Shown here: piece after piece, positions 27,813-54,200 of the stretch
Layout: every line of letters starts with the position of its first letter
Numbering within the stretch: position 1 is the first letter of the stretch
Virus record (IMG/VR): IMGVR_UViG_3300037603_000023
Location: 817 to 64,816 of that record
Strand: one strand, 5' to 3'
Length of the DNA stretch: 64,000 nucleotides
Source of the DNA: a virus
Lineage: Duplodnaviria > Caudoviricetes
The notes under the pieces: generated by a model
What the model saw: only the letters and a program-made list of their open reading frames with translations
What the model was told of the DNA's origin: nothing
Database searches by the model: none
Program-made: the position numbers and the translations under genes

Positions 27813-28176
27813 GACGCAAAGAGCCATTCGAACGCGCGGCCCGCTCTCTTTCTTTATATCTGGAGATTTTCTTGTCGACGCATTGAAAGGCTGACCTTGT
27901 GCAAGCGCGCCTGATGGCGCTTGTCAAGTCTTTGCACGGTCATCATGAAGAGCACTATTTATAGGGGATGCGCGAAAGAAAACTGATTTTCAGCGTTTCC
28001 GCAAGTCCTCGCAACCTCACGTTTTGTTACAGGTTCCGGGCTGGTCCGGTTATGTTGCTGACATATAAGCGAAACCGGGAAAAGCGCGCCTTCCTGGCGC
28101 GCGCTTGATCCATGCACTTTTTCCTTGACGGGGTTTTGAGCGGGTCGAGAAAAAGCGCGTTTGACCACATTATTTT

Positions 28177-28206
28177 GTTGCATAACTTGCAACTTTCGCT
28201 TAGATT
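28177..28206 (+). promoter_or_regulatory. operator overlapping sigma70-like promoter of the accessory operon
   Basis: GTTGCATAACTTGCAAC (exact reverse complement of 49978-49994); TTGCAT-N17-TAGATT. Confidence 0.75.
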
Positions 28207-28256
28207 GAACATATCGAAACAGGCCAAACGTGGCCACCATTTAGGAACATTCGATC

Positions 28257-28490
28257 ATGGCACAAGCTGCAACCGCATCCTTTAACGACACCTACGCCGG
28301 TTTCATCCCGGTCAAGCTGGTTCCGTTCCGGACAAAGCGCAAGGGCGCAACCGTCACGCGGTATTCATGGCGGACGGAAGAAAACGCGGGTATCGGCATA
28401 TGGCGCGACCCGTCCTTTCCTACGGTCGAAAGCGCCATGCGCGCCGCATCCCGTATCCCGCATCTTTTCCAGAACGTGACGGAAGGCTGA
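28257..28490 (+). CDS. accessory hypothetical protein
   Basis: AGGA RBS after hairpin 1; 77 aa. Confidence 0.75.
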   Translation: MAQAATASFNDTYAGFIPVKLVPFRTKRKGATVTRYSWRTEENAGIGIWRDPSFPTVESAMRAASRIPHLFQNVTEG

Positions 28491-28494
28491 CACC

Positions 28495-28890
28495 ATGCGC
28501 CAGCTACTCGCAACCGCCATTCTAGCAACACTCGCAACCGGATCATATGCCGCTGACAAAGCGGCAACGTTGCCACCATGCGAGACGGAAGATTCTATAA
28601 ACTGTTTTTGGGACGCGACCGCGCGCGGCAACGGTAAAGGTCAGTCATTCATTGACGTTGACGGAAGCCGCATTTCTCTTGCGCCTTTTTTGCTTGTCGA
28701 ACTGTCAGGCTCGAGCGTTCGCATTCTGGAGCGGTTCGAACTGCCCGGCCATTGCTTCAAAGCCTCGCTTGATCATGCGCTACCAGCTGGCGCGACCTTT
28801 GCAACATGTGTCGGCACCGACGAAGCAAGCGAGGAAGCTATGGCCGCATATGTGGCCTTTGAGTATGGCCTGATTGAAGGCGATTTTTGA
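28495..28890 (+). CDS. secreted hypothetical protein
   Basis: Signal peptide MRQLLATAILATLATGSYA-A; LPPCETEDSINCFWDA...GNGKG motif. Confidence 0.75.
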   Translation: MRQLLATAILATLATGSYAADKAATLPPCETEDSINCFWDATARGNGKGQSFIDVDGSRISLAPFLLVELSGSSVRILERFELPGHCFKASLDHALPAGATFATCVGTDEASEEAMAAYVAFEYGLIEGDF

Positions 28891-28928
28891 AACCTGCCAA
28901 CCGTGGCAACCAACAAGGAACCGAAACC

Positions 28929-29165
28929 ATGCGCCCATATACCATGACACCGGATCGCGGCTTGCAGCCCGATATGACCGCGCGCCTTTACGTGAAACGC
29001 GACACCATGACAGACCTTTGGCGGTTGGCATGGATGACACCCGGCGCTGATTCATTCTGCTATGCGGAAGGTGAGTGCAGCGCCAAACTTTTTCGGTTGC
29101 GCCGCGATGCGGTCGCATATGGCCAGCGCGCCTATGGTGAAACTGCAAGCAAGTGGACGGATTGA
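28929..29165 (+). CDS. accessory hypothetical protein
   Basis: AAGGA RBS after hairpin 2; 78 aa. Confidence 0.75.
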   Translation: MRPYTMTPDRGLQPDMTARLYVKRDTMTDLWRLAWMTPGADSFCYAEGECSAKLFRLRRDAVAYGQRAYGETASKWTD

Positions 29166-29168
29166 ACC

Positions 29169-29411
29169 ATGGCTTATGTGACAATCCACAAATCCGGCGC
29201 TGGCGCTGATAGCTTCAAAGTCGATTCATGGTTCAATGGTTTGGCTTACAACTTCCATTTCGGTGAAGCCGGATCACCTATGCGAAACGTCTATTTGCAA
29301 GGTGAAGACGCGACCGCGATCCGCGACGAATTCGACAAGATGGAAAGCCGGGAACCGGACCGGGAAAGCCGCGAAATATGGCTGGCGTTGCTCGATCCTT
29401 ATCTCGACTAG
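29169..29411 (+). CDS. accessory hypothetical protein
   Basis: TGAACCATG junction; 80 aa, acidic C-terminus. Confidence 0.75.
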   Translation: MAYVTIHKSGAGADSFKVDSWFNGLAYNFHFGEAGSPMRNVYLQGEDATAIRDEFDKMESREPDRESREIWLALLDPYLD

Positions 29412-29499
29412 CCGCAATCGTGACGGCGCGCGCGTTCGCGCCGTGACATGGCCGCTAGGTCAATCCCGCTCAATTGTGAGCACCACGAAAGGAAAACCC

Positions 29500-29643
29500 A
29501 TGTTCACACATTCCGACCGCAACCGCCGCGACACGTTCGCCAATTCCAAACCCGGCAAAATCCGCCGGAATGACCGGCGCGCCGCTATCGCTCGCAAATC
29601 GGCTTTTCTGGTCGATGGCCTGACAATCCGCGCGGGGGAATGA
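29500..29643 (+). CDS. small basic hypothetical protein
   Basis: AAAGGA RBS after hairpin 3; 47 aa Arg-rich. Confidence 0.7.
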   Translation: MFTHSDRNRRDTFANSKPGKIRRNDRRAAIARKSAFLVDGLTIRAGE

Positions 29644-29646
29644 ACC

Positions 29647-29901
29647 ATGACACCTAATCAGATCGCCGACAAAGCGCGCGAAATGTGCGCCGGGAACGAG
29701 GAACTTTCCGCCAACCTGAAAGCCGCTTGGAACCGGGTTTGCGACCAGATCGAAAGCCGCGCTAAGCGGATCGGATCGCGCGTTTTCGAAGTGCGGCAAT
29801 GTCTCGACGCGGCCCGGCTCGAGCTGCTGACAGCGACAGTTGACGGGAAGCCGCTTGATGTCGCCGAAAAGCTTTCCTTGAAGCGCGTGGGGATCGAATG
29901 A
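29647..29901 (+). CDS. accessory hypothetical protein
   Basis: TGAACCATG junction; 84 aa. Confidence 0.7.
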   Translation: MTPNQIADKAREMCAGNEELSANLKAAWNRVCDQIESRAKRIGSRVFEVRQCLDAARLELLTATVDGKPLDVAEKLSLKRVGIE

Positions 29902-29903
29902 CC

Positions 29904-30167
29904 ATGGAAACCGCAACCAGCAAGCCCGCGACAATCACGGACGCGCGCCGGTCTTTTCTGGTCGACACGCCGAACGCTTGCACTCATTGGGGCCGCGTCA
30001 CCTTGACGACGACACCGGCCACGGATGGCGACGAACGGCGGTTTGTGCTGGCCGGTCCGTCTGGCCGTCACTCGCTCTTGATCGTCGCAACGGACGCGGC
30101 GCGCCTTGATGCGCATTGGCAAGGCTTTTGCAGCGATCCGCGCAACTGCCCAATTTCTGGAGAATGA
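29904..30167 (+). CDS. accessory hypothetical protein
   Basis: TGACCATG junction; 87 aa. Confidence 0.7.
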   Translation: METATSKPATITDARRSFLVDTPNACTHWGRVTLTTTPATDGDERRFVLAGPSGRHSLLIVATDAARLDAHWQGFCSDPRNCPISGE

Positions 30168-30169
30168 CC

Positions 30170-30481
30170 ATGGCCAACCGTTTAAGACAGATGATTTCAA
30201 GCGTGGTCAATGCGGCCATCGGCAAAGGCGGAAAGCCGATTGTCGAGCAACCGACTTTGCGTTGCCTCAAGGATCGCGCCGACGCGGCCGGAACTGCATT
30301 TGATGCGGCATGCAAGCCGCATTTCGCGGATGGCCGTTGGGGCGCATATCGCGCCATTGAATGCGGCCAGGAAATCCCGGCAACGGTTGACGCGGCAATG
30401 ACCGCTTACCACGACGCGACACAAGCATTTTACCGGGCCCGCGATGGTGAGGGCGGCTTTCTCGGATCGCGCGGATTGTGA
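30170..30481 (+). CDS. accessory hypothetical protein
   Basis: TGACCATG junction; 103 aa. Confidence 0.7.
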   Translation: MANRLRQMISSVVNAAIGKGGKPIVEQPTLRCLKDRADAAGTAFDAACKPHFADGRWGAYRAIECGQEIPATVDAAMTAYHDATQAFYRARDGEGGFLGSRGL

Positions 30482-30607
30482 CAACGGCGCGCGGTCTTCA
30501 CCGGGCCGCGCACCTATCACCCCGGCAACGTCACCGCATGGCGGCGTTTCCCGGCTGATAGAGCCGAAACCTGGCCAATTGTGGCCGCCAATTGAGGAAT
30601 TGAACCG

Positions 30608-31039
30608 ATGGCAAATGAACCGAAACCCACCACCATGCTTGCCGCCGTTCTGGCAACGGAAGGCAAAGGCCCATATCACACCGCGCGCGGCGAAAAGACC
30701 GATTTTATTGGCGACGGCTTGAGCGCGTATCGCATCGCCAAAGACGCGGAATCCTTGATCCGGCTTGGCAAGCGCGCCGCGCGGGTCGCGGTGCAACAAT
30801 GCAACGGAATCGATCGCTATGACGCAAAAGCCGGTCGCGTGCTCGCATCATGGACGGAAGCGGACCAGGACCGCGCGGAAAAGGCGAAAGCCAAAATCGA
30901 GACGGAAGCCAACGCAATTCTTGCGGCCTATGGCGGCGGCAATGCCAGCGCGGGCGGCGATCCGCGCGGCTATGTGCTGAAATTCAAACTGAATTCGGGC
31001 CGGTCAAACGGCATGGATTCCGGCGTTTGGGGGGTGTGA
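30608..31039 (+). CDS. accessory hypothetical protein
   Basis: GAGGA RBS after hairpin 4; GDPRGYVLK motif. Confidence 0.75.
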   Translation: MANEPKPTTMLAAVLATEGKGPYHTARGEKTDFIGDGLSAYRIAKDAESLIRLGKRAARVAVQQCNGIDRYDAKAGRVLASWTEADQDRAEKAKAKIETEANAILAAYGGGNASAGGDPRGYVLKFKLNSGRSNGMDSGVWGV

Positions 31040-31042
31040 TCA

Positions 31043-31471
31043 ATGAGCACTTACGTTTTCGACACTGACGACTTGCTCGATATTCGCCAAATCATCGAAC
31101 GGTTTGAAGAACTGGAAAGCGACCGGGACGGCTTTGTGATTGGCGCTCCGGACGGCACGGAAACGCCCGCGCCAGATCAATGGGCGGAAGAAAATCCGGA
31201 GGATTCCGACGAGTTGGCAATCCTTGAAAAGATGCTCGACGAATTGCGCGGCTATGGCGGTGACGAACAATGGCGCGGCGATTGGTTCCCCGGAACACTG
31301 ATTCATGAACGATATTTCACCGATGCAATGCGCGAGCTAGTCGAGGATATAGGCGGCATGCCAAGGGACGCGCCTTCATACCTCGTCATTGATTGGGAAG
31401 CGACCGCCGAAAATTTGCGCGTCGATTACTCGTCAATTGAGGTTGACGGCGAAACCTATTGGTATCGCTGA
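31043..31471 (+). CDS. ArdA-like antirestriction (acidic DNA-mimic) protein
   Basis: Very Asp/Glu-rich; ELVEDIG..P...YLVIDWEATAENLRVDY C-terminal ArdA-type motif. Confidence 0.6.
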   Translation: MSTYVFDTDDLLDIRQIIERFEELESDRDGFVIGAPDGTETPAPDQWAEENPEDSDELAILEKMLDELRGYGGDEQWRGDWFPGTLIHERYFTDAMRELVEDIGGMPRDAPSYLVIDWEATAENLRVDYSSIEVDGETYWYR

Positions 31472-31472
31472 A

Positions 31473-31640
31473 ATGATCCTTTGCCACATCCTAAGCGCAC
31501 ACGAACGCCTCATAACGTGGACGGAAGCCGCGCGGCTGATATGGCGGGACATTGAGCCAATTGCCCGCGACCTATTCGCCCTCGCTTCAATCTCTCTCTT
31601 TGTCGCGGCCTTTGTGCTGGTCGCGGCGGGGATCTCTTAA
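31473..31640 (+). CDS. small membrane protein
   Basis: 55 aa with one C-terminal TM helix. Confidence 0.6.
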   Translation: MILCHILSAHERLITWTEAARLIWRDIEPIARDLFALASISLFVAAFVLVAAGIS

Positions 31641-31673
31641 CCGCCAATCGTGGCGACCAGGAAAGGAATTGAA

Positions 31674-31913
31674 ATGCAGGTAACGGTTTCCAGAGAGCGC
31701 GACGTGGGCGGCGATTCCATCGCCTATGCCGTGCTCAATGACGGGCAAGCAACGCCGCTCATCATTCATCGCTATCGGTCCCAGGATTGGCAGCTTTGCC
31801 GGGAAAGGCCGATGCCGCCCGGCGCGTCTCGATCATGGGTGACAACCAGCATCCACAAGCGACTGAGTGAGGCGAAAGAGGCGGCGCGCCAATTGCTTGA
31901 AACCACCGCTTGA
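31674..31913 (+). CDS. accessory hypothetical protein
   Basis: AAAGGA RBS after hairpin 5; 79 aa. Confidence 0.75.
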   Translation: MQVTVSRERDVGGDSIAYAVLNDGQATPLIIHRYRSQDWQLCRERPMPPGASRSWVTTSIHKRLSEAKEAARQLLETTA

Positions 31914-31941
31914 TCAACCTCAATTCAGGAAAGGAATTCAG

Positions 31942-32190
31942 ATGTTCATTATCGAGATGCAACCGCCAAACGGCGCGCCGGTCGAATATTGGCCGGAAGG
32001 ATTCGGCTTTACCAGCCATGCGCACACACTCGACCGCGACCAGGCCGCGCGCTTTGACAGCGAGCCCGCCGCATGGCAGCGCGCCAATGGGTACAGATGG
32101 CCACCGGCCTTCTGGGAAAGTGAGCGCAAGCACCGCGACCGGATGGAAGCAAAATTCAGGCTTTGGCAATTCCGCGTCGTCGCCGCATAG
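31942..32190 (+). CDS. accessory hypothetical protein
   Basis: AAAGGA RBS; 82 aa. Confidence 0.7.
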   Translation: MFIIEMQPPNGAPVEYWPEGFGFTSHAHTLDRDQAARFDSEPAAWQRANGYRWPPAFWESERKHRDRMEAKFRLWQFRVVAA

Positions 32191-32275
32191 GCCGGATTTC
32201 AGCCGCGACCGGCTTTCGAGCCGGTCATGGGTGCAATCGCGCCGTCTCAATTGTGAGAACCAGAAAGGATTCGAA

Positions 32276-32611
32276 ATGCCACGAGAAACCCACACACTGC
32301 CATTTATCGGGATGCCAGACACCGAAGTTACAGGAAAGCGCGTTGGAGCCTTCCTTGTGTTCCGCTGCCCCGTGTACCCCGCGAAATTCCTCGTCTCGCA
32401 CCTGCCGTCACAATACAGCGCGCACAGTGACGGATTCCGCACACAGCGCGCGGCCCTGAATTTCGTTGACGCCCTTATGGCCCTGCCTGTGGATTGGGAT
32501 GCAATTCAGACGCCCGAACAAGCGCAGAGCTTGCCGCCCGAAGTGCTGCGCGAAGTCTATGACATTCGCCGCAGCTTCAACGCCGCAACCCTCAATCATT
32601 GGAGGGTGTGA
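32276..32611 (+). CDS. accessory hypothetical protein
   Basis: AAAGGA RBS after hairpin 6; 111 aa. Confidence 0.75.
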   Translation: MPRETHTLPFIGMPDTEVTGKRVGAFLVFRCPVYPAKFLVSHLPSQYSAHSDGFRTQRAALNFVDALMALPVDWDAIQTPEQAQSLPPEVLREVYDIRRSFNAATLNHWRV

Positions 32612-32613
32612 CC

Positions 32614-32838
32614 ATGGCCAAGCTTTCCCCTGTCAAAAATATCCCGACATTCGCTTGCATCATCCGCGCAACATGGGAGCGTGGCTCCGATCAGATTGCC
32701 GCCATCCGTGAAATCGATAATCGCGGCTCTTGGTTGTCAGCCGACCAATTGACACAAGCCGGGCTCACAAAAGCCAGGTATCGCGAGATTTGTGGCCGTG
32801 ATCCGAATACGGGCGCGAGGGCTGTTCAACATGGGTGA
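32614..32838 (+). CDS. accessory hypothetical protein
   Basis: GGAGG RBS, TGACCATG junction; 74 aa. Confidence 0.7.
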   Translation: MAKLSPVKNIPTFACIIRATWERGSDQIAAIREIDNRGSWLSADQLTQAGLTKARYREICGRDPNTGARAVQHG

Positions 32839-32992
32839 TCAGCCGAAGAAAGTCGCCAAGCTCCACAAGGGCAGAACATGGGCTGTAATGCGTCTGCCTT
32901 GGACAGGATTCCGCGACATGATCAGCGGCTTTGACAGCAAGGAAGCCGCCAAAGAATGGGCCACGGCGAACGGTTACGAGGTCATACCATGA
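32831..32992 (+). CDS. small hypothetical protein
   Basis: 53 aa overlapping the upstream stop. Confidence 0.6.
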   Translation: MGDQPKKVAKLHKGRTWAVMRLPWTGFRDMISGFDSKEAAKEWATANGYEVIP

Positions 32993-33075
32993 CCCGCCGC
33001 GCCTTCCTGCTGGCCGTGGCCGCTTTAACAATTCCAACAGGAATTGAGGGGGATGGCGACGTGCCACCCCCATAG
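32989..33075 (+). CDS. 28-aa micropeptide
   Basis: ATGA overlap; MTRRAFLLAVAALTIPTGIEGDGDVPPP. Confidence 0.45.
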   Translation: MTRRAFLLAVAALTIPTGIEGDGDVPPP

Positions 33076-33145
33076 CCCACCGCATGACCTGGGCGGCAAT
33101 TGTGCCGCCCGCCCCTCAACCGTGAAAACCGAAAAGGAAACCGAC

Positions 33146-33781
33146 ATGAAAACTTCAATCTGGATCGTAACCACCACCATCCCCGAGCGCGGCGAGCCGC
33201 CTTGCTTCCCAAGCCCGTTTGCAACGGAAACCGAGGCGGAAGCCTATGCCGATGAAATGATGCGCGCCGAGTGGGCCAGTCATGGGCCGGATGACGACGA
33301 AACCGGCGAGAGTCTACCCTACCCCGGAGATTGGCGCGAAGCTCAAGACTTGATCCTTGATTTCTACAATGATGGCTCCTGGGGCCAATGGCAGGTCACG
33401 CAGCACACCATCGAGACGCCGGACGTTTCGCACCCCGCCGCCGCCTTCATCAACCGCATGGCACAATTCACCACGCCGGAGGATGAATTCAACGACCCGG
33501 AAAACCAAGACAATGTTGCGGTCTATTCCGATGTCGAGGAATACATCAGCGACATGAGCGACGACCGGCTTTGCGGCGAGTATGAAGCCTTCATGTGCAT
33601 GGTGCGGGAAGCCCGGACAATTCGGGATGCTACCCCTGCCCCTGACCCGCGAATTACCGAGGCGAAAGCGGTCATCGGCCAGCTTGTGCTCCAGGTCGAG
33701 CAAATGCGCGGCATGTTCGATGACAGCGACGGCACAATTCAGGCCGCGCTTGATGATGCGGAGGCGTGGGGCAATGACTGA
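33146..33781 (+). CDS. acidic accessory hypothetical protein
   Basis: AAAAGGA RBS after hairpin 7; 211 aa, strongly acidic. Confidence 0.8.
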   Translation: MKTSIWIVTTTIPERGEPPCFPSPFATETEAEAYADEMMRAEWASHGPDDDETGESLPYPGDWREAQDLILDFYNDGSWGQWQVTQHTIETPDVSHPAAAFINRMAQFTTPEDEFNDPENQDNVAVYSDVEEYISDMSDDRLCGEYEAFMCMVREARTIRDATPAPDPRITEAKAVIGQLVLQVEQMRGMFDDSDGTIQAALDDAEAWGND

Positions 33782-34025
33782 CCTGACCCTGATCTACCTC
33801 GTCACCTACAATTTCGATTACGAGGAAAGCGCCCGCGCCTTCCGCACCCGCGCCGAAGCCGTGGCCGACATCGCCGACACCTTCGAATGCGAGAGCGAGC
33901 CAGACACCCCGGCCTTTTGGCAGGAGGTCATGGACACCTATGGGGCGGGCAATTGGAAAGGCTTCCAGTTTCTCACGCTCGACCCGGCAACGATGGCGAT
34001 CAAGGAGGCCAGGACCGATGGCTGA
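33774..34025 (+). CDS. acidic accessory hypothetical protein
   Basis: 83 aa overlapping the upstream stop. Confidence 0.7.
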   Translation: MTDLTLIYLVTYNFDYEESARAFRTRAEAVADIADTFECESEPDTPAFWQEVMDTYGAGNWKGFQFLTLDPATMAIKEARTDG

Positions 34026-34284
34026 TCACTCGCGGAAATACCTGGACACCTCAACTGCGCACATCTCACCCGCCGCAGTCGAATGGCTCGACAAGGTTAG
34101 CGGTGGCTACACCGTCGCCAAATTCGAATACGGCTGGTTTTGGCTGGTGCCGCAAGCGCCGGATGATCTTCTGCATGAAGACCTTCGACCGATTGCTGAC
34201 CACGCATCGAAGCTTGGATGCCACCACGTTCTATTCGATCGTGATGCAGCGCCAATTGACGGCTTGCCCGTCTACGAATGGTGA
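34018..34284 (+). CDS. DUF5983-like protein
   Basis: LDTSTAHI...YGWFWLVP...VLFDRDA motif. Confidence 0.7.
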   Translation: MADHSRKYLDTSTAHISPAAVEWLDKVSGGYTVAKFEYGWFWLVPQAPDDLLHEDLRPIADHASKLGCHHVLFDRDAAPIDGLPVYEW

Positions 34285-34289
34285 GCGCG

Positions 34290-34523
34290 ATGGAAACGAA
34301 AGAAGAAAAGAAGCGGTTCCTTGAGTCCTATGGATGGAAGGTCGGTGAGCGCGATCCCCGCCTCAACACAGACTTCCCCGGCGCGTTCATGTGCGTCGAG
34401 CCGCACGAGGAAGCCGAATTGCCGACCCGCGACGGCTCGAATGGACCGTGGTGTATCGTCGGCGACGACCTGCCCGCGCTTATCGATGAGGCGCATGATT
34501 TCTTGTCTGCGCTGATCCAATAA
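34290..34523 (+). CDS. accessory hypothetical protein
   Basis: 77 aa; in-operon spacing. Confidence 0.7.
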   Translation: METKEEKKRFLESYGWKVGERDPRLNTDFPGAFMCVEPHEEAELPTRDGSNGPWCIVGDDLPALIDEAHDFLSALIQ

Positions 34524-34557
34524 CCCGCCAATCATGGCAACCGAGAAAGGAAATCCG

Positions 34558-34869
34558 ATGTCCATACAACTGAATTTCATGGAAATGCTCGACGCTCTGG
34601 ACGAACTGGAATCGCCCGCCGCCGCGTCATTCAAGAAAACCGCCGAGGGCCTTGCGTCTGCGATGGCTCTTGAGATTGCACGTCTCACCGAAACCAAAAC
34701 CGACGAGGCAATTCATGAGGGCATGGCCTTCGCTGGCCTGTGCGCCCCGTTCAACCCGACCAAGGCGTATCAAGCGCCGCCGCAAGTGCTGACACAATTC
34801 GATCCTGGCGGCGTCGAAGACTGGATTGAAGACGCCGCAGCCCTCTACACCGAAGCGCAGGAGGCTTGA
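34558..34869 (+). CDS. accessory hypothetical protein
   Basis: AAAGGA RBS after hairpin 8; 103 aa. Confidence 0.75.
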   Translation: MSIQLNFMEMLDALDELESPAAASFKKTAEGLASAMALEIARLTETKTDEAIHEGMAFAGLCAPFNPTKAYQAPPQVLTQFDPGGVEDWIEDAAALYTEAQEA

Positions 34870-34872
34870 ACC

Positions 34873-35439
34873 ATGACCAATGAAACCGAATCCCACGGCG
34901 TCAACGTCTGGATGTGCGCCACGATCTACGTCGATGCCTTCAGCCAGGAAGAAGCCGAAAGCACCGTGACCGAACTCTATGCCGGTTCGCTCGAAAACCC
35001 GGACACAGTGGAAATTGCCGCCCGCGATATTCGGATGAGCGAGGGCGGGGATTTTCTGTCACCTGCCGTCACGCTCTACGGCCTTGCCAGCGAGAGCAAG
35101 CTTGTGCCCGAGTTTGACCCGGTCCGCGATGCAGCGCCCGACATGCTGGCGGCGCTGCAAGCCGTCATGCGCTGCGCCCGTGGCGAGCTGGAGCGCCCGC
35201 TTACGCAGCGCCAGCCATGGGCCGAGGCGCAGCGGCTGATCGAGGCAGCAATAGCCAAGGCGGAAGGCGGTGCAGCACCGACCACACTCGAAACCGCGCA
35301 GTCCCTCGAAGCCAAGTACGGGCGCTGGCAGGACCACCCCGATTACAGCGACCGCGATTGGCGCAACGACGAAACCCGCCTGGGTTATTGGGAATGGGTC
35401 GCGTCCAAGGTCAACAGCCAGGAAGGCGATTCAGCATGA
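34873..35439 (+). CDS. accessory hypothetical protein (modular)
   Basis: TGAACCATG junction; AAPDMLAAL..AIAKAEG and GEHPDY..DW...GYWEWV-type phage modules. Confidence 0.75.
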   Translation: MTNETESHGVNVWMCATIYVDAFSQEEAESTVTELYAGSLENPDTVEIAARDIRMSEGGDFLSPAVTLYGLASESKLVPEFDPVRDAAPDMLAALQAVMRCARGELERPLTQRQPWAEAQRLIEAAIAKAEGGAAPTTLETAQSLEAKYGRWQDHPDYSDRDWRNDETRLGYWEWVASKVNSQEGDSA

Positions 35440-35636
35440 GCAACCCGAATGGTATCCGCTACTGTGTGGATGGGCATGAATTCCCCTACCCTGAATCCAA
35501 TCTGGCAGGCGATGGCAAGTATGCGCCGTTCCGTGTCTTCGACATCACCGCCCAGGATTATGTTGGCGAACAGCACCCGACGCGGGACGACGCCGAAGCT
35601 GCTATGCGCGAACTGGAGGGTCGCAACAATGGATAA
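35436..35636 (+). CDS. small hypothetical protein
   Basis: ATGA overlap; 66 aa. Confidence 0.65.
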   Translation: MSNPNGIRYCVDGHEFPYPESNLAGDGKYAPFRVFDITAQDYVGEQHPTRDDAEAAMRELEGRNNG

Positions 35637-35919
35637 GCCCGCTCACAAGAAGATCACCGACATCGGCGATTTCGCAATATGGGAAACGCCGTCTGGTCGG
35701 TTCGAAATCTACAGCCCTACATCGCTACTTGCCTCAACGGGCACAATTGAGCGGGCCCTGGAATACGCCAGAGCGAAGGTGCGGGAGGCAGGCCCACCGG
35801 ACCCGCTGACCGCGCTCAAGGCGGTCGTGGCGACCGCGCCGCGCCTCTCTCACAGTCCGTTCACGGACGCTATCGAGGCCGCTAAGGCGGCGATTGCCAG
35901 GGCGGAGGGGCGGTCATGA
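35629..35919 (+). CDS. hypothetical protein
   Basis: Overlapping start; 96 aa. Confidence 0.65.
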   Translation: MDKPAHKKITDIGDFAIWETPSGRFEIYSPTSLLASTGTIERALEYARAKVREAGPPDPLTALKAVVATAPRLSHSPFTDAIEAAKAAIARAEGRS

Positions 35920-36485
35920 TCGAAGCAAAGCCCAACGGCTGTCAGGAATCGAATTACCTGGTCCCTACGCTCCCCTGTAACCAGCCCGCCGAGCGCATGA
36001 TCGGCTGGCCGGGGCGCGGTGAAGGCCCGTACCGCATGTGCGCAATGTGCGCCAATCACAGCGTCCGCAATCGTGGTGCTGAAGACATGGGGCCGTATGT
36101 GGCGGATGATGGGTCGGGGAATACGCCAGAATCTATAGCAAACGGCTACCTACGGGTAAAAATCCCCCTTACGACTGAAATGCTGGCCGCAATCGATGCC
36201 GCGGAAAGGAGCCTATTTTTGACCACTCTATTCTACCTCTCTTTCGCCGACCCGCAGAAGCCCAAGGGTGAACAATGGCTTGGCGCAGCAATTGTCGCTG
36301 CACCAGACTTCGTCGCAGCGGTGAATATTGCGCACATTGAAGGCATCAACCCAGGTGGTGAGGTGGTGGGTCAGGACGTCGATGCTGAATTGGAGGTTCC
36401 GCAACACTTCATCGGTCGGTTGCTCAACAAGCAGGACGTAGCCGACTTGGATGCCGCCTTGCTGGCCCAGCGTACCAAGCAATGA
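35916..36485 (+). CDS. hypothetical protein with N-terminal Cys cluster
   Basis: ATGA overlap; CQE...C...CAMC motif. Confidence 0.65.
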   Translation: MIEAKPNGCQESNYLVPTLPCNQPAERMIGWPGRGEGPYRMCAMCANHSVRNRGAEDMGPYVADDGSGNTPESIANGYLRVKIPLTTEMLAAIDAAERSLFLTTLFYLSFADPQKPKGEQWLGAAIVAAPDFVAAVNIAHIEGINPGGEVVGQDVDAELEVPQHFIGRLLNKQDVADLDAALLAQRTKQ

Positions 36486-36641
36486 CGCCCGAGCCATCCG
36501 CCCGCGACCCACCAGAACGCGACGAGAACCAAACAAAAACGAGCAGAACATAGGAGAACAAACCATGCCGAACCGCGCCAGAGAGCCACCACCACCCGCT
36601 CATTCAGCCAATTGTGGAAACCAGACAGGAAAGGAACACCG

Positions 36642-36863
36642 ATGCGCTACATCGTTTTGACAGGTCGCCATCCGACCAGAACCCGCCGCGAACTCATCAA
36701 GGAATGCTGCGACAACGGAATCACCGTGCAGAAGAAGGTGGACCGGCGCACAGACACCGTGATTGCCAGCCGCTTCGACACTAAGAAGGCCAGCGCCGGC
36801 AAGGACAATTCAATCCGCATCTTGCCCTACGAAGCTCTTGAGCAGATCATCGGGAGGTTTTGA
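36642..36863 (+). CDS. stand-alone BRCT-domain protein
   Basis: IVLTG...TRREL......G..VQKKVDRRTDTVIA...TKK matches ligase-type BRCT; RBS after hairpin 9. Confidence 0.75.
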   Translation: MRYIVLTGRHPTRTRRELIKECCDNGITVQKKVDRRTDTVIASRFDTKKASAGKDNSIRILPYEALEQIIGRF

Positions 36864-37138
36864 TGCAGCACCAGGAAGGATCAACAGTGGTCACCCGCTA
36901 CAAGTACAATCGCATGACACCGAAGGATTTCTCCGGCGATCTGAATTCGCTCGGGCTGTCAGCCGGTCAATTTTCCCGGCTGTCCGGGGCGCGCTATGAG
37001 CGCGTCCTGAAGTGGCTCGACGGGCAGGAGGACATTCCCCCTCATGTGCCGGTGATGCTGGCCCTGCTGGAATTGCCCGGCGCGATGGCGCAGGCACAAA
37101 GGGCCGTCAACTTCTATATCCGAGAGGAAGGCCAATGA
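36860..37138 (+). CDS. HTH transcriptional regulator
   Basis: MTPKDF...LGLSAGQFSRLSGARYERVLKWLDG...IP. Confidence 0.75.
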   Translation: MMQHQEGSTVVTRYKYNRMTPKDFSGDLNSLGLSAGQFSRLSGARYERVLKWLDGQEDIPPHVPVMLALLELPGAMAQAQRAVNFYIREEGQ

Positions 37139-38628
37139 CCGTCATCACCATCGGAAAGAGCGCTGCCGGTCGCGAGGTCGAATTGCGGCTCGACAAGGCC
37201 AATCGCCACGGGCTCGTCACCGGCGCAACAGGCACCGGCAAGACCGTCTCCCTGCAACTGCTCATGGAAGGCTTCTCCCGCGCTGGTGTCCCGGTCTTTG
37301 CGGCTGACGTGAAGGGCGATCTGTCCGGCATCGCAGCGTTCGGCCAGGACGACAGCCGTGCCGCCGATCGATCCCGCAAAATGACCGGCCACTTCAAAGC
37401 CGATCGCTTCCCGGTGACCTTCTGGGATCTGTTCGGCGAACACGGTCACCCGATCAAGACCAGCGTTCAGCAGATCGGCCCGGATCTCACCTCGCAGATG
37501 CTGCGCCTGAACGAAACCCAGGCCGGGGCAATTGCCATCGCCTTCAAGAAGGCCGTAAACGATCAGGCGTGGATGCTGACGCTCGACGATCTGCGCTGGA
37601 CCTTGAACGAGATGATCGAGGAACGGGCCGAAACGTGCGAGAAATACGGCAACGTCACCGCGAGCTCGATCAACACCGCACAGCGCCAATTGCTGTCGCT
37701 CGAGTCCCAGGGCGGCGACAAGCTGTTCGGCGAACCGCCGTTCTCTGTCCTTGACCTGATCCGCAAGCGTGAGGACGGCCGCGGCTACATCAACCTGCTT
37801 CACGCCGACCAATTGATGGAAGCTCCGAAGCTCTACGCCACCTTCCTGCTCTGGCTGCTGACCGAATTGTTTCGCGAACTGCCCGAGGTCGGCGACGTGG
37901 ACAAGCCCAAGATGGTGTTCTTCTTCGATGAAGCCCACCTGCTGTTCTCGGATGCTCCGAAGCAATTGCTCGAGAAGATCGAGCGCCTGGTGCGCCTCGT
38001 GCGCTCCAAGGGCGTGGGCGTCTATTTCGTGACACAATCCCCCAAGGACGTGCCCGACGCCGTCCTCTCCCAGCTGGGCAACCGAATTCAGCACGCTCTC
38101 CGCGCCTACACCCCGAAGGATCAGCGCATGGTGCGCGCTGCCGCCCAGGCATTCCGCCCGAACCGCGATGTCGACGTGAAGACCGTCATCACCGAAATGG
38201 GCGTGGGGGAAGCTCTGGTGTCCTGCATGGATGAAGATGGGATTCCGCTGCCGGTCGAGCGCGTCAAGGTCATGTCACCGTCGGCGCATATCGGACCGAT
38301 CACGAACGACGAGCGCCATGTCATCATGAAGGCGTCGCCGTTCGCCGGCAGCCGGGCCGAGAAGCCGATCCACGAGCAGGGCTATCACTTCATGCGCAGG
38401 ATGAAAGAGGACGCCGGCATCGATCCTGGGCCGGATAACGGCCCGCCCGATTACGTGCCGGGACAGATCGCAGCTGAGAGCCAGATCACCGTTGATGCGC
38501 TGATGGAATTGAACGGCATGGTCGAGCAAGAGCAACGTCCGCGCGGGCTGACCGGTCGGCACTTCTTCTGGGGATGGCTGATCTGCACCGTGGTCGCGGT
38601 CACGGCTGATCTGGTGGGTGTCTTCTGA
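37135..38628 (+). CDS. DUF853/YjgR HerA-like ATPase with C-terminal TM segment
   Basis: NRHGLVTGATGTGKT, ADVKGD, FFFDEAHLLF, RSKGVGVYFVTQSP, GNRIQHALRAYTP. Confidence 0.92.
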   Translation: MTVITIGKSAAGREVELRLDKANRHGLVTGATGTGKTVSLQLLMEGFSRAGVPVFAADVKGDLSGIAAFGQDDSRAADRSRKMTGHFKADRFPVTFWDLFGEHGHPIKTSVQQIGPDLTSQMLRLNETQAGAIAIAFKKAVNDQAWMLTLDDLRWTLNEMIEERAETCEKYGNVTASSINTAQRQLLSLESQGGDKLFGEPPFSVLDLIRKREDGRGYINLLHADQLMEAPKLYATFLLWLLTELFRELPEVGDVDKPKMVFFFDEAHLLFSDAPKQLLEKIERLVRLVRSKGVGVYFVTQSPKDVPDAVLSQLGNRIQHALRAYTPKDQRMVRAAAQAFRPNRDVDVKTVITEMGVGEALVSCMDEDGIPLPVERVKVMSPSAHIGPITNDERHVIMKASPFAGSRAEKPIHEQGYHFMRRMKEDAGIDPGPDNGPPDYVPGQIAAESQITVDALMELNGMVEQEQRPRGLTGRHFFWGWLICTVVAVTADLVGVF

Positions 38629-38810: not shown

Positions 38811-39509
38811 TTACCCGAACAGCCGCGAAAGCCTCGTCGCCGTCAGTGCGCCGCCCGCGAGCGGCAGGAACGACCACCGGGCCCGGAAGGCCCGGGCCGT
38901 GATCATGTCGAGATCCAGCGCCACGATGTCGAGCCCGACGCGGATACCTTCGACGGCATTGGGCTTGACCCTCTTGCCGTCACCGAGAATTGCCGAGAAT
39001 TCATCCCGGATGATGACCGCGTGCAGAAGGTCGAAGATGGCGGTGCCGTCCATCTGATCCCGCCATCTCTGGATCTTCTTCATGCAATCGAACTTGTGAT
39101 CGGCCACGCGCCTGGATCCAAACCCGCCGGAAGGTGTCGCCTCGAGGTCGACCGACTGCATCGGTGAAACCTGGGCGCCTTCAACAGCCGTTCGAAAGCG
39201 CTCACCGGCTGCGACGCGCATCATCTCCGCGCCGGCAGCATCCTCTCTTGTTGCCAGCCGCCGCGTCTCCCGAAGCCATTCGAACGGGCCGGAATTGATG
39301 TTGATATCAATCGTGTTCTTCTGGTCTCGCATGTGCATCTTGATCTCGTGACCATCACGGCCGGCGCGCGGGAGCGGTGCCGCCACGGACGGCGTCGCCC
39401 ATCCGGCCAACCCGTAGACCATGTGCATCTGAGCGTAGAACTTAGCGCGACGAACCTCGAATTCTGGTTCCCGGCGGTAATGCGCTGCGAGGCCAACCGT
39501 GATCGACAT
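38811..39509 (-). CDS. DUF6456-like protein (putative late-transcription regulator)
   Basis: NINSGPFEWL...AGERFR motif; last gene of the early leftward operon. Confidence 0.6.
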   Translation of the reverse strand: MSITVGLAAHYRREPEFEVRRAKFYAQMHMVYGLAGWATPSVAAPLPRAGRDGHEIKMHMRDQKNTIDININSGPFEWLRETRRLATREDAAGAEMMRVAAGERFRTAVEGAQVSPMQSVDLEATPSGGFGSRRVADHKFDCMKKIQRWRDQMDGTAIFDLLHAVIIRDEFSAILGDGKRVKPNAVEGIRVGLDIVALDLDMITARAFRARWSFLPLAGGALTATRLSRLFG

Positions 39510-39796
39510 CATCGACTCCTTCGCTTCTCGACCGGGACCGGCTTCTTGCCGGGCCGAAAGACCGCGTTCGCCGCCTGGAGCGCGTTCACGCGCTTGCTGG
39601 CGGTTCCGACGACGTCTGCTTGCCAGAAATTGCGCATCGCGCGCCACGCGGCCAACTCAGCCTGATCCTGAGTATCGAACAATTGGCGCTTGCCACCCTT
39701 TTGCACGATTTTCCAGCCGCCCATGCGAACAGTTCGGAAATACCCTACATAAGTGCCAGTGGCGACCATCTCCGTCCTGACGTCAATCGAGTTCAT
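39509..39796 (-). CDS. hypothetical protein
   Basis: 95 aa with overlapping boundaries. Confidence 0.6.
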   Translation of the reverse strand: MNSIDVRTEMVATGTYVGYFRTVRMGGWKIVQKGGKRQLFDTQDQAELAAWRAMRNFWQADVVGTASKRVNALQAANAVFRPGKKPVPVEKRRSR

Positions 39797-51923: not shown

Positions 51924-53024
51924 ATGAATACGAAGACACAAGAGATGGAGATCGTCACTCAGGATGGTGAGGTGATCTCCGGGCTCCCAGCCGGATATTC
52001 CGGGCAGGAAGGAAGCCTCGCTGTCAGCCTCGCCAGGGCCGAAGTTGATCAGCAGATCGCAACATCCCGCGCGCTGCCGCGCAACATTCGGAAGGCTGTC
52101 GACAACATCAAGTCGCTGGCCACCCTCGACGAGAAAAGCGCTGAGGAATGCGTCTACGCGCTTCCGCGCGGCGGTAAGCCGATCAAGGGACCGTCAATCC
52201 GCCTGGCTGAGATTATCGCATCGCAGTGGGGCAACTGCCGGGTTGGCGCTCGCGTCGTCCATGTCGATCGCCATGAAAAGTGGGTCGAGGCCGAGGGTGT
52301 TTTCCACGATCTGGAATCGAACACGGCTACCACGTCGCGGGTTCGCCGGCGCATCGTCGACAAGAACGGAAATCTCTACTCCGATGACATGATCATCGTC
52401 ACCGGCAACGCGGCATGCTCGATTGCGAAGCGCAACGCCATCCTTGGCGCTGTCCCGAAGGCAGTTTGGCGCTCGGCATATGACGCGGTGGAAAGCGTAA
52501 TTGCTGGAGATGTGAAGACGCTGGTTGAGCGGCGCGGGAAGGCCATGAAGGCGTTTGCAGCGTTCGGCGTCACGCCAGATCGCGTTTGCGAGGCCTTGGG
52601 TGTTTCTGGGCCCGAGGAAATCACCGTCGACCTTATGCCCATCCTGCTTGGCTGTCATTCCGCCCTGAAGAGCGGAGAGGCCACGGTCGAAGAGCTTTTC
52701 CCCGTGAAGGGGGAAAAGCCATCAGGCCCGAAAGACCTTTCCTCCCGCCTCGACGCTATCGCCAAGGCAAATACCAACTCAGACACCAAGGAACCAGACG
52801 GCGAGAAGGATGCGCCGTCCGGTGATGCCGGTGAGGAAGGCGCAACTGACGTTGGCGACGAGGCCGAAGCCGCCGCCATGACGCCCGTCGAGACAGCCCG
52901 GGCCGAAGGCCTTGAGGCCGGGCGAAAGGGCATGGCTCGGAAGGCCATGCCCGCCAAGTACCGCAACGACGCCGAACTCTCGGCGGCATGGATTTCCGGA
53001 TTTGATGAAGGGGTGAAGGGATGA
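51924..53024 (+). CDS. putative single-strand annealing/recombination protein
   Basis: AEVDQQIATSRALPR, YALPRGGKPIKGPSIRLAE; synteny with YqaJ. Confidence 0.6.
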   Translation: MNTKTQEMEIVTQDGEVISGLPAGYSGQEGSLAVSLARAEVDQQIATSRALPRNIRKAVDNIKSLATLDEKSAEECVYALPRGGKPIKGPSIRLAEIIASQWGNCRVGARVVHVDRHEKWVEAEGVFHDLESNTATTSRVRRRIVDKNGNLYSDDMIIVTGNAACSIAKRNAILGAVPKAVWRSAYDAVESVIAGDVKTLVERRGKAMKAFAAFGVTPDRVCEALGVSGPEEITVDLMPILLGCHSALKSGEATVEELFPVKGEKPSGPKDLSSRLDAIAKANTNSDTKEPDGEKDAPSGDAGEEGATDVGDEAEAAAMTPVETARAEGLEAGRKGMARKAMPAKYRNDAELSAAWISGFDEGVKG

Positions 53025-53472: not shown

Positions 53473-54200
53473 CCGAGATCCCTATGCTTTCCGTCCTCCG
53501 CTTCTGCGATACCGAGACAACGGGATTTAAGAAACCCGCAGAAATGGTCGAGATTGGTTGGACAGACCTACGCCTGTACCCAGAAGGGTGGGTGATTGAG
53601 GTCGATAACCAAAGCGCCTTTGTTCAACCAGGAGTTCCTATTGAGCAGGGCGCTTTCGAGACCCATGGCATAACTCTTGAGATGACCGTTGGAGGGTTGC
53701 TCCCCAGCGAAGCGCGCGCTTTGCTGGACAAGGATTCGGCGATTTTGGGTGCTCACAATGTCGCTTACGACCGGCAGTTCGTCCGGTCTGGCAAGCCATG
53801 GATTTGCACCCTCGAGTGCGCCCGTAAGGTTTGGCCGAAGGCTCCCAACCACAAGCTCGAAACGCTGAAGGAATATCTCGGCATCGAGCTCGAGGGTGAC
53901 GCCCACCGCGCCGGATACGACGCTGCCGTGGCGGCTCGCATCTTCCTTCACCTGACCAAGCACATGACAATCGAAGAGATGTTGGAGCGGTCAACTCCCG
54001 AAAGCGTGCCTTTGTTGATTGAATTTGGGAGCAAGTACAGGGGTCGCCCGTTTGAGGATGCTGATACTGGCTACCTGAAGTGGATACCAACCACCGACAT
54101 GCGGAAAGGCATCAAGACAGCCGCACGATTGGCTCTACAGGCTCGGGAGACGGCGCCGGTGGTGCGGTCGGCAGGGTCTGCATGGGATCGGAGCTTCTGA
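53469..54200 (+). CDS. DEDDh 3'-5' exonuclease (ExoX-like)
   Basis: DTETTG, AHNVAYD, AHRAGYD motifs. Confidence 0.9.
   Translation: MTEIPMLSVLRFCDTETTGFKKPAEMVEIGWTDLRLYPEGWVIEVDNQSAFVQPGVPIEQGAFETHGITLEMTVGGLLPSEARALLDKDSAILGAHNVAYDRQFVRSGKPWICTLECARKVWPKAPNHKLETLKEYLGIELEGDAHRAGYDAAVAARIFLHLTKHMTIEEMLERSTPESVPLLIEFGSKYRGRPFEDADTGYLKWIPTTDMRKGIKTAARLALQARETAPVVRSAGSAWDRSF

Follow-up and report, generated by a model that had tools for sequence, protein, structure and literature searches.

The stretch of DNA analysed here, hereafter called the window, comprises 64,000 of the 64,816 bases of IMG/VR virus record IMGVR_UViG_3300037603_000023 (G000), a genome from pond metagenomes rated 96% complete. 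The minus strand of the window carries genes for a lambda-type portal, a gpA terminase and a tail sheath, while the plus strand carries, from about 28.2 kb onward, an early operon with a span of 10.4 kb. Almost none of the proteins encoded by the cassettes of this operon belongs to a Pfam or PHROG family, DUF5983 being the sole family found among the cassettes. The operon is punctuated by a small hairpin element, NNNCA-ANNR-TGNNN-RCC (5' arm, loop, 3' arm and 3' flank; N, any nucleotide; R, purine), which is followed by a Shine-Dalgarno sequence (SD) and an ATG. The element is present in nine copies, all on the plus strand from 28222 to 36619, and no others were found in the 64-kb phage; a preliminary description of this stretch had likewise not noticed it in the other operons. 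The operon and the nine copies are as follows.

28257..38628, plus strand: early operon of 29 same-strand genes, mostly tiny ORFans, ending with a helix-turn-helix (HTH) gene (91 amino acids) and a HerA-like ATPase gene
28222..28259, plus strand: element 1, GGCCA-AACG-TGGCC ACC; SD AGGAA; ATG 28257; in the 5' leader of the operon; dG -6.8
28895..28931, plus strand: element 2, TGCCA-ACCG-TGGCA ACC; SD AAGGAA; ATG 28929; begins 4 nt past the upstream stop
29468..29502, plus strand: element 3, GCTCA-ATTG-TGAGC ACC; SD GAAAGGAA; ATG 29500; heads a conserved 47-aa gene
30573..30610, plus strand: element 4, GGCCA-ATTG-TGGCC GCC; SD GAGGAA; ATG 30608
31642..31676, plus strand: element 5, CGCCA-ATCG-TGGCG ACC; SD GGAAAGGAA; ATG 31674; begins 1 nt past the upstream stop
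32245..32278, plus strand: element 6, TCTCA-ATTG-TGAGA ACC; SD GAAAGGA; ATG 32276
33114..33148, plus strand: element 7 (weak), CCTCA-ACCG-TGAAA ACC; SD AAAAGGAAA; ATG 33146; orthologues have TGAGA
34526..34560, plus strand: element 8, CGCCA-ATCA-TGGCA ACC; SD GAGAAAGGAAA; ATG 34558; begins 2 nt past the upstream stop
36606..36644, plus strand: element 9 (weakest stem), AGCCA-ATTG-TGGAA ACC; SD AGGAAAGGAA; ATG 36642; heads the block with the HTH gene

The ten hairpins listed in the preliminary description are all present, and one of them, at 33091, calls for a reservation: it has the CA-ATTG-TG top, but is an 8-bp accessory hairpin without an RCC or SD of its own. When the window was searched with the pattern CAAYYRTGNNNRCC, eight matches were obtained, all on the plus strand at 28.9-36.6 kb, compared with 0.55 +/- 0.8 in shuffled sequences; the motif is not equally common in shuffled sequence; an equal frequency would have spoken against it. 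The ninth copy (28222) falls outside this pattern with its loop AACG.

The position of the element within the operon follows a simple rule. All ten intergenic gaps of at least 28 nt hold a copy (that at 31915 being degenerate), and the 18 other junctions of the operon, none of which has such a gap, measure -8 to +4 nt; namely, they are stop/start coupled, often in the form TGA(A)CCATG. The element is therefore considered to be the leader of each start that recruits ribosomes independently, which is a stronger rule than the earlier observation that each copy precedes a ribosome-binding site and an ATG. The copies are co-directional with the genes without exception. In the family of 63 copies described below, the distance from the 3' end of the hairpin to the SD core is 6-7 nt in 51 copies, and that to the start codon is 17-23 nt, while the distance from the upstream stop to the hairpin varies from 1 to 39 nt. 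Given this fixed SD spacing and variable stop distance, the element appears to be anchored to the downstream ribosome site and not to the upstream stop. The SD is of the extended GAAAGGA type, which would presumably pair with the extreme 3' end of 16S rRNA. The leaders contain 48% A and 8% T, with A/C-rich single-stranded flanks on either side of the hairpin; the mean energy of the hairpin is -4.8 kcal/mol, and its mean pair probability in 134-nt contexts is 0.66. The copies at 33114, 34526 and 36606 have just 3-4 pairs.

Two further observations concern these junctions. The coupled ones show a second fixed form, TGA(A)CCATG(G/A), in which a stop is followed by an ACCATG context (29165-29171, 29643-29649, 29898-29906, 30165-30172, 32609-32616 and 34867-34875). 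Also, the last element is traversed by a 31-codon open reading frame (ORF) with its own GGAGAA SD (36565-36660, plus strand), which overlaps the start at 36642 and, if translated, would unwind the weak hairpin.

By pattern scans and protein-guided retrieval, we collected a total of 63 copies from nine phage or prophage sequences, with hosts including Hoeflea and Microvirga. In addition to the window, the sources are as follows.

G001, a second 64-kb viral contig: 11 copies
a prophage in the Hoeflea chromosome: 12 copies
a provirus whose two elements and flanks compared are identical to those in the Microvirga brassicacearum CDVBN77 provirus: 2-3 copies
two other proviruses: 4-5 and 2 copies
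three further metagenomic or metagenome-assembled-genome (MAG) contigs, one labelled Ahrensia: 12, 9 and 3 copies

Among the 63 copies, 38 hairpins are distinct, with 23 types of stem. Pairs 4 and 5 of the stem (C-G and A-U), which had been described as near-fixed, are invariant in all 63, as is the CC of the flank; the first loop position is A in 63/63, and the 3' flank reads RCC in 60/63. The outer three pairs are Watson-Crick in 162 of 189 cells. To avoid selecting for pairing, copies for the covariation analysis were defined with no requirement on the outer pairs (CA-N4-TG-N3-RCC plus SD and start), which gave 39 sequences. In this set, 91.1% of the outer cells are paired compared with 67.3 +/- 2.0 in shuffles, and 41 cells show double changes compared with 12.7 +/- 3.1; none of 500 shuffles reached either of the observed values, and slid controls were 20-57% paired. 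The claim that the outer pairs vary and yet stay complementary is thus borne out. Comparison of orthologous slots leads to the same picture: the leader of the 47-aa gene has GCTCA/TGAGC in the window, GGCCA/TGGCC in G001, TGTCA/TGACA in Hoeflea and GGTCA/TGACC in another relative (L219), and the slot of element 4 alternates between GGCCA and GCGCA, with compensation, from genome to genome. Different complementary stems in one orthologous slot indicate independent compensatory events. The stem and loop of element 1, for their part, are identical to those of the first copy in L219 and L221. As had been proposed, the covariation and the link to the downstream ribosome site argue for a fold under selection and make a plain double-stranded DNA operator unlikely.

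The element is confined to a narrow set of genomes. A covariance model (R1) scored the copies at 20-33.5 bits and, over 358 kb of these genomes, nothing else above 19.5 bits. Of the matches to the pattern including the SD in the 4.3-Mb genome of Hoeflea, 12 lay in one 10-kb prophage array and 3 elsewhere; when the SD was not required, 11 matches fell in the array versus 25 scattered, which is near chance level. Clustered elements were found in only one of 151 genomes sampled from that order, namely Hoeflea. Because the clusters are limited to phage arrays, a host-wide regulon is unlikely, and a reader of the element would be encoded by the phage or else belong to the general machinery of the host. 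No match was obtained when cultured phages were searched at the nucleotide level. No element was found in the stretches examined of terminase relatives (47-67% identity) and of HerA relatives; its absence from the former suggests that the element travels with the early module and not with the virion module. More distant carriers of the HTH gene (about 40% identity) have variants of the element, CCGCA-AYNG-TGCGG-ACC in L224 and GGCA-ATCA-TGCC-ACC in L226, while L223 has longer GC stems with the C(A/G)...UG top and RCC kept. In L223:1050-9000, GC-rich start-linked hairpins such as GGCGCG-CTTA-TGCGCC-ACC and GCCCGCA-ATGG-TGCGGGC stand ahead of most operon genes, and these hairpins suggest a motif family that extends beyond what model R1 detects.

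When viral and genome collections were scanned with loose patterns, most matches were single and due to chance, and relatives were recognised by clustering and pairing alone. As a warning for such pattern searches, CGCCAATCGTGGCGACCGCAAGGAAG recurs as a chance look-alike within an apparent conserved gene of unrelated bacteria (L195-L198 and L204; Acidobacteriota and Acidimicrobiia MAGs). In Rfam 15, no match at the gathering score was obtained in the window; at E up to 1, the array gave a single sub-threshold match, to RAGATH-25, which is not at an element. A strict sigma70 consensus scan called no promoter at any element, and no terminator was predicted within the array or at any element, the stem of which is 5 bp long without a U run. 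The element thus matches no catalogued Rfam or promoter family, and appears from its sequence to be a well-supported new RNA motif whose reader and effect are candidates only.

The region upstream of element 1 differs from all other slots in containing promoter-like sequence.

28161..28215, plus strand: promoter-like region before element 1, AT-rich, with -35-like TTGACC / TTGCAT and -10-like TAGATT, as read from the sequence
28177-28193: perfect inverted repeat GTTGCA-TAACT-TGCAAC inside this region

This region is likely to be the early promoter with an operator, while the strict sigma70 scan called no promoter there. In relatives, promoter-like regions with palindromes likewise precede the first element, the palindrome being TGCGATCATCGCA in the Hoeflea prophage and L219 (about 895-910), and these palindromes at the heads of the arrays are candidate DNA operators. 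Single-stranded DNA hairpin promoters, which the preliminary description had considered, find no support, in view of the presence of a sigma70-like region upstream of the first copy only, the spacing tied to the SD, and the lack of a giant virion RNA polymerase gene. For the N4-type promoters in particular, no ORF for such a polymerase is present, the largest being 775 aa.

The fixed orientation, the fixed SD spacing and the presence at all and only uncoupled starts make it very probable that the element functions on the mRNA at translation initiation. The invariant top and RCC, as opposed to the freely covarying lower pairs, would imply a sequence-specific reader of the small hairpin, and the phage-restricted distribution points to a reader encoded by the phage. 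Among the proteins of the operon, one stands out as a candidate for the latter.

36863..37138, plus strand: 91-aa XRE-fold HTH protein, candidate trans-acting reader, in the last element-headed block

In an all-against-all comparison, this was the sole protein common to the first six element-bearing genomes, several of which share almost nothing else with the window. The HTH gene is always located in the last element-headed block of the arrays, and the hairpin heading that block, of 3-4 pairs, is weaker than any other in each of the five collinear genomes. Contigs retrieved through the HTH protein alone hold 12, 9 and 3 further copies of the element, whereas the HTH gene and the element are both missing from a HerA relative that has 10 kb of upstream DNA. 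AlphaFold gave a confident five-helix XRE-type HTH model (pLDDT 89.6), for which the nearest solved folds in Foldseek were HigA2, the MqsA C-domain, Aca2, Aca10 and controller proteins, with weak E-values; the atlas neighbours concur. The protein matches no Pfam family, Aca2_YdiL included, and has no sequence match in the PDB. The HTH family has 579 representative relatives, and a protein search with the HTH sequence gave one marginal match only. A protein-bound translational switch was among the roles envisaged earlier; the invariant loop-proximal pairs and RCC, the phage-specific distribution and the co-occurring HTH gene all speak for it, this support being comparative in nature.

We propose that the element would act as a cis-acting leader module of the early-operon mRNA, composed of a 5-bp stem and a 4-nt loop. 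The top of the stem (C-G, A-U and the loop A-N-N-R) and the 3' R-C-C would be read by sequence, with the lower three pairs needing to be paired only. Such a module would head each translation unit in need of de novo ribosomes, and the remaining genes would use stop/start coupling. A phage protein binding the hairpin top and RCC on all 9-13 leaders of one transcript would occlude the adjacent ribosome sites, and hence would shut down, or set the level of, the entire cassette-rich early operon jointly. The XRE-type HTH protein in the last element-headed block would be the best candidate for this reader, and the weakest hairpin on its own leader might then lead to graded autoregulation. The reading we favour, albeit tentatively, is that the element serves as an operator hairpin on the mRNA for a translational regulator encoded by the phage, as with Aca1 and Aca2; we regard this as a good possibility falling somewhat short of a probable one. 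The identification of the HTH protein as the reader is a more doubtful matter. Equally speculative is the full picture, in which an unnamed XRE-type HTH family would be an RNA-binding global translational repressor that reads 9-13 hairpin-RCC operators on a 10-kb mRNA and switches off a swappable, probably counter-defence, early cassette array; the strength of repression would be graded by stem length, with the repressor's own leader the weakest, and the operators would double as recombination joints, placing captured genes under control.

Several observations weigh against the operator reading and its extensions. There is no G-U pair in the 189 outer cells, which is unusual for an RNA helix, and 21 of the 27 outer mismatches are 5'C/3'A, i.e., wobble pairs on the opposite strand. 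These features would fit folding of the other strand or of DNA, and are only partly accounted for by the A/C-rich, U-poor leader; the antisense fold is, however, not more stable than the sense fold (-4.72 vs -4.79 kcal/mol). The HTH protein has no sequence similarity to the solved Aca proteins and resembles them at the level of fold only. Its conservation may also have a different cause, such as a role as a Cro-like or Mor-like transcription factor, in which case its co-occurrence with the array might just reflect that both define this type of operon. Since the cassettes in the window are ORFans, with ArdA seen only in a relative (L221), an anti-defence role is unproven. Four slots, moreover, carry long stem-loops that are better suited to processing of the transcript.

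While the preliminary description knew of no described system that matches the element, this was too strong; SAS/ESAS, the Aca1/Aca2 motifs and PeSL are close in kind. Aca2 is described as repressing translation by binding 5'-untranslated-region hairpins and thereby blocking ribosome binding (PMC13551039). The Aca1 motif is a covarying hairpin that begins just past the transcription start site (TSS) and leaves about 20 nt to the start codon; RNA motifs of the Aca type also lie between genes of one operon (PMC13551039). The likeness to Aca1 and Aca2 consists of a small HTH protein whose gene stands distally in an early or counter-defence operon of a phage (here in the last block), a covarying short inverted repeat past the putative TSS (inferred from the sequence here) and 17-23 nt before the start codon, and a helicase gene that can follow the regulator. 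The present system nonetheless differs in that its HTH protein has no sequence match to the Aca families (Aca1-Aca14), that its hairpin has another sequence and is much smaller (14 nt), that there are 9-13 hairpins per operon, at each uncoupled start, instead of one or few, and that no Acr is recognised.

In cluster K mycobacteriophages, SAS is a fixed 13-bp box, GGGATAGGAGCCC, located 3-8 bp before the start codon, and ESAS consists of 17-bp sequence-conserved inverted-repeat arms, 4-13 bp apart, upstream of SAS (PMC3203893); a role in translation initiation has been proposed for them (PMC3203893, PMC12699233). As with our element, these repeats occur at translation starts of a subset of genes, in the non-structural region only and in one orientation, and an SD box is preceded by an inverted repeat. 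Here, however, the arms are 5 bp and covarying, with a 4-nt loop, RCC and a GAAAGGA SD, and the host phylum and phage type also differ. The PeSL (promoter-early stem-loop) cassettes of T4-type phages comprise a strong sigma70 promoter and a terminator stem-loop (PMC2839356, PMC4122927). They too are short conserved units that flank small ORFan genes of hyperplastic early regions and lie at breakpoints of insertion, deletion and replacement, but our element has no promoter or terminator, is found within a single operon, and is linked to the ribosome site. In kind, the element is intermediate between SAS/ESAS and the RNA motifs of Aca, while its recombination behaviour resembles that of PeSLs; by sequence or anatomy, it is a member of none of the three. 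A further likeness is to RegA of T4, in that one phage protein could turn off many early cistrons at their initiation regions. RegA, however, binds unstructured AU-rich start regions and is not an HTH protein, whereas a defined hairpin upstream of the SD is found here.

In addition to the nine copies, degenerate versions and accessory hairpins were found in the array.

31915..31944, plus strand: degenerate copy, CCTCAATTC, in a 28-nt gap; 3' arm and RCC lost, no hairpin; SD GGAAAGGAA intact; ATG 31942
32586..32616, plus strand: re-registered degenerate version, CCCTC...GGAGGG, inside the end of the upstream gene; its 3' arm doubles as the SD for ATG 32614
29406..29461, plus strand: long accessory stem-loop between the stop at 29411 and element 3
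30486..30567, plus strand: two-hairpin accessory RNA before element 4, conserved in four relatives
32190..32243, plus strand: long irregular accessory stem-loop of about 20 bp before element 6; 3' part GGTGCAATCGCGCC conserved in relatives
33090..33111, plus strand: accessory 8-bp hairpin, GGGCGGCA-ATTG-TGCCGCCC; CA-ATTG-TG top as in the element; without its own RCC or SD

Three degenerate versions had been noted earlier, of which those at 31918 and 32589 are indeed truncated or re-registered copies, but that at 29411 is the foot of a larger hairpin of -36 kcal/mol. The 81 nt of 29405-29485, element 3 included, have a minimum free energy (MFE) of -36 kcal/mol (z -2.7), and the 73 nt of 32190-32262, element 6 included, have one of -37.1 kcal/mol (z -4.4). 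At 30486-30567, several G-U pairs of the sense strand are changed to G-C or A-U among relatives, suggesting that these accessory hairpins fold in the transcript. Accessory stem-loops thus lie directly upstream of the element at four slots (29406-29461, 30486-30567, 32190-32243 and 33090-33111).

These stem-loops bring up an alternative, in which the element would be part of a processing or stability punctuation: the early RNA would be cleaved upstream of the elements, within either the A-rich single strand or the long stem-loops, and the hairpin with its strong SD would be a 5' stabiliser of each segment, as in T7 RNase III sites, puf-type intercistronic hairpins and 5' stabilisers against RNase J or RNase E. 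The T7 early mRNA also has structured RNA at its early-operon junctions, and the four accessory stem-loops are of comparable size; those preceding the four elements, of about 20 bp or more, are conserved with wobble changes on the sense strand, the flanks on either side of the hairpin are A/C-rich and single-stranded, and the geometry of hairpin and extended SD is constant. A site for RNase III, however, needs an irregular helix of about two turns, for which a hairpin of 5 bp and 14 nt is far too short, and most slots (five of nine lack a long hairpin) hold only the element. A pure stabiliser, moreover, needs no invariant C-G/A-U top, loop A or RCC; the first copy stands in the primary 5' leader, where a cut is unnecessary; and a signal for a host nuclease would be expected in host genes, but none was found in the Hoeflea genome or the 151 genomes. 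We thus consider this alternative rather unlikely.

The gene content of the array is mosaic, and the element often lies at the edges of the mosaic. When the window was compared with four relatives, homology blocks began at -7 to +3, or ended at +17 to +38, relative to the start of an element. Of 27 array genes, 13 have no homologue in eight relatives, and the Hoeflea prophage, whose terminase is 90% identical, shares just 11 array genes; about ten joints nonetheless keep their order and individual stems despite gene divergence. A co-occurring pond variant (a 50-kb contig) matches at the joints only and differs by whole genes; it lacks the gene 34558-34869, and its element 8 heads the next gene (joint 34553 to 34873). 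Genes for ArdA, beta-clamp and DUF5983 occupy array slots in relatives, that for ArdA being in the L221 array. The suggestion that gene blocks are gained and lost exactly at the elements thus holds for these homology edges, but breakpoints are also found at coupled junctions; on the TGA(A)CCATG(G/A) form, for example, breakpoints of relatives fall at 29643 and 34873. Because the joints are conserved while the genes diverge, the 35-130-nt joints may serve as homology for exchange of gene blocks between related phages, and the homology breakpoints at the elements provide comparative support for the recombination joints proposed earlier.

It could then be supposed that the element is nothing but a passive plug-and-play start site and recombination linker, whose hairpin insulates the ribosome site from the upstream gene, whose joint homology allows in-register exchange of cassettes, and whose varied stems prevent joint-joint recombination within one genome. 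The block edges at elements, the many genes without a homologue between joints of constant order and the whole-gene differences of the pond variant would all be expected, and element-headed starts are also more open than coupled ones (0.59 vs 0.44 unpaired). In silico removal of the hairpin, however, shifted the accessibility of the start site by just -0.03 +/- 0.07, and this negligible change argues against a purely structural insulator. The positions that are invariant in 63 copies, and to lineages of about 40% identity, point instead to a sequence-specific reader; breakpoints at coupled junctions too are as in any phage mosaic, and exchange may be a consequence, not a cause, of the conservation. 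A passive linker is accordingly improbable in our view.

Considerably less credit is given to a fold at the level of DNA, i.e., a bottom-strand single-stranded hairpin or a cruciform that would be read, in the spirit of attC or REP/RAYT, by a recombinase or nuclease specific for structure, or else a form, extruded or double-stranded, that the HTH protein would read. The lack of G-U pairs, with mismatches that are almost all C/A and thus G-T on the other strand, would agree with such a fold; the array also behaves as a cassette array, and HTH proteins classically bind DNA. The 96%-complete genome, however, gave no match to tyrosine recombinases (PF00589) or to the Y1 HUH transposases (PF01797) of IS200/IS605 and REP/RAYT systems. 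An integron attC is an imperfect palindrome of 57-141 bp with R/L boxes and comes with an integrase, and the 5-bp arms of our 14-nt element are far below the sizes of attC or REP. At the DNA level, there is no rationale for keeping the distance to the SD strictly at 6-7 nt or for orienting all copies one way along the transcript, and the freely varying outer half-sites rule out ordinary base-specific readout of the outer palindrome by an HTH dimer.

The least probable of these alternatives, and a very remote one, is a signal in the nascent RNA, namely a boxB-like antitermination site or a hairpin-dependent pause coupling RNA polymerase and the first ribosome at each re-start. A 5-bp stem with a small loop is about the size of a lambdoid boxB, a boxA-like ATCTCTTAAC precedes one slot, and the location, about 11 nt ahead of the SD, would be suitable for a pause. 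In lambdoid nut sites, however, boxB has a GNRA-like pentaloop and is accompanied by boxA at two sites, whereas our loops are 4-nt A-N-N-R and there are 9-13 copies per operon. At that single slot, the boxA-like string simply ends a coding sequence, no terminators are predicted within the array, and no N-like protein turned up, though N was not searched for. Three other ideas were rejected: an RNase P mimic, with stem and RCC resembling an acceptor stem and discriminator-CC, leaves the conserved loop and top pairs unexplained and has a very short stem; the 5' arm could pair with the AUGGC start context in few copies only; and CsrA-like or anti-SD pairing finds no UCCU complement in the hairpin.

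Some other features of the phage are also worth recording. Convergent to the array lies a gene on the minus strand (38811-39647) whose product, of about 233-278 aa, belongs to no family (DUF6456 is a weak match) and may initiate replication or act as a loader. Its place next to the HTH gene is conserved in G001, G003 and G004, and in L219, L222, L223 and L224 the same position, beside the replicative helicase, is taken by genes of similar size. A UvrD/RecD-like SF1 helicase gene (54080-56314, plus strand) is apparently interrupted by an intein, with LAGLIDADG and Hint domains inside an AAA_30 ... UvrD_C frame, and its homologues in Hoeflea and G002 align across only about 340 aa. The 366-aa protein encoded by 51924-53024 (plus strand) has a weak C-terminal match to ribosome modulation factor (RMF) with E of about 1e-3, below the cut-off. 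No tyrosine integrase was detectable in the present genome, yet the close relative with the 90% identical terminase sits in the Hoeflea chromosome (L201/L206, 2.83-2.92 Mb).

If the operator reading with the HTH protein as reader is correct, the recently discovered binding of RNA hairpins by phage HTH proteins would concern not just a single leader per operon but a set of operators throughout it, and a new HTH family would be joined by a new, very small RNA motif with clean covariation. A hypervariable gene array would then stay under common control while its contents are exchanged. The cultured Microvirga brassicacearum CDVBN77 carries a two- to three-copy version, and the question is hence open to bench work. 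Even if the HTH protein is not the reader, the motif marks early accessory-gene arrays in Hyphomicrobiales prophages (Hoeflea and Microvirga), and also marks true translation starts and mosaic breakpoints.

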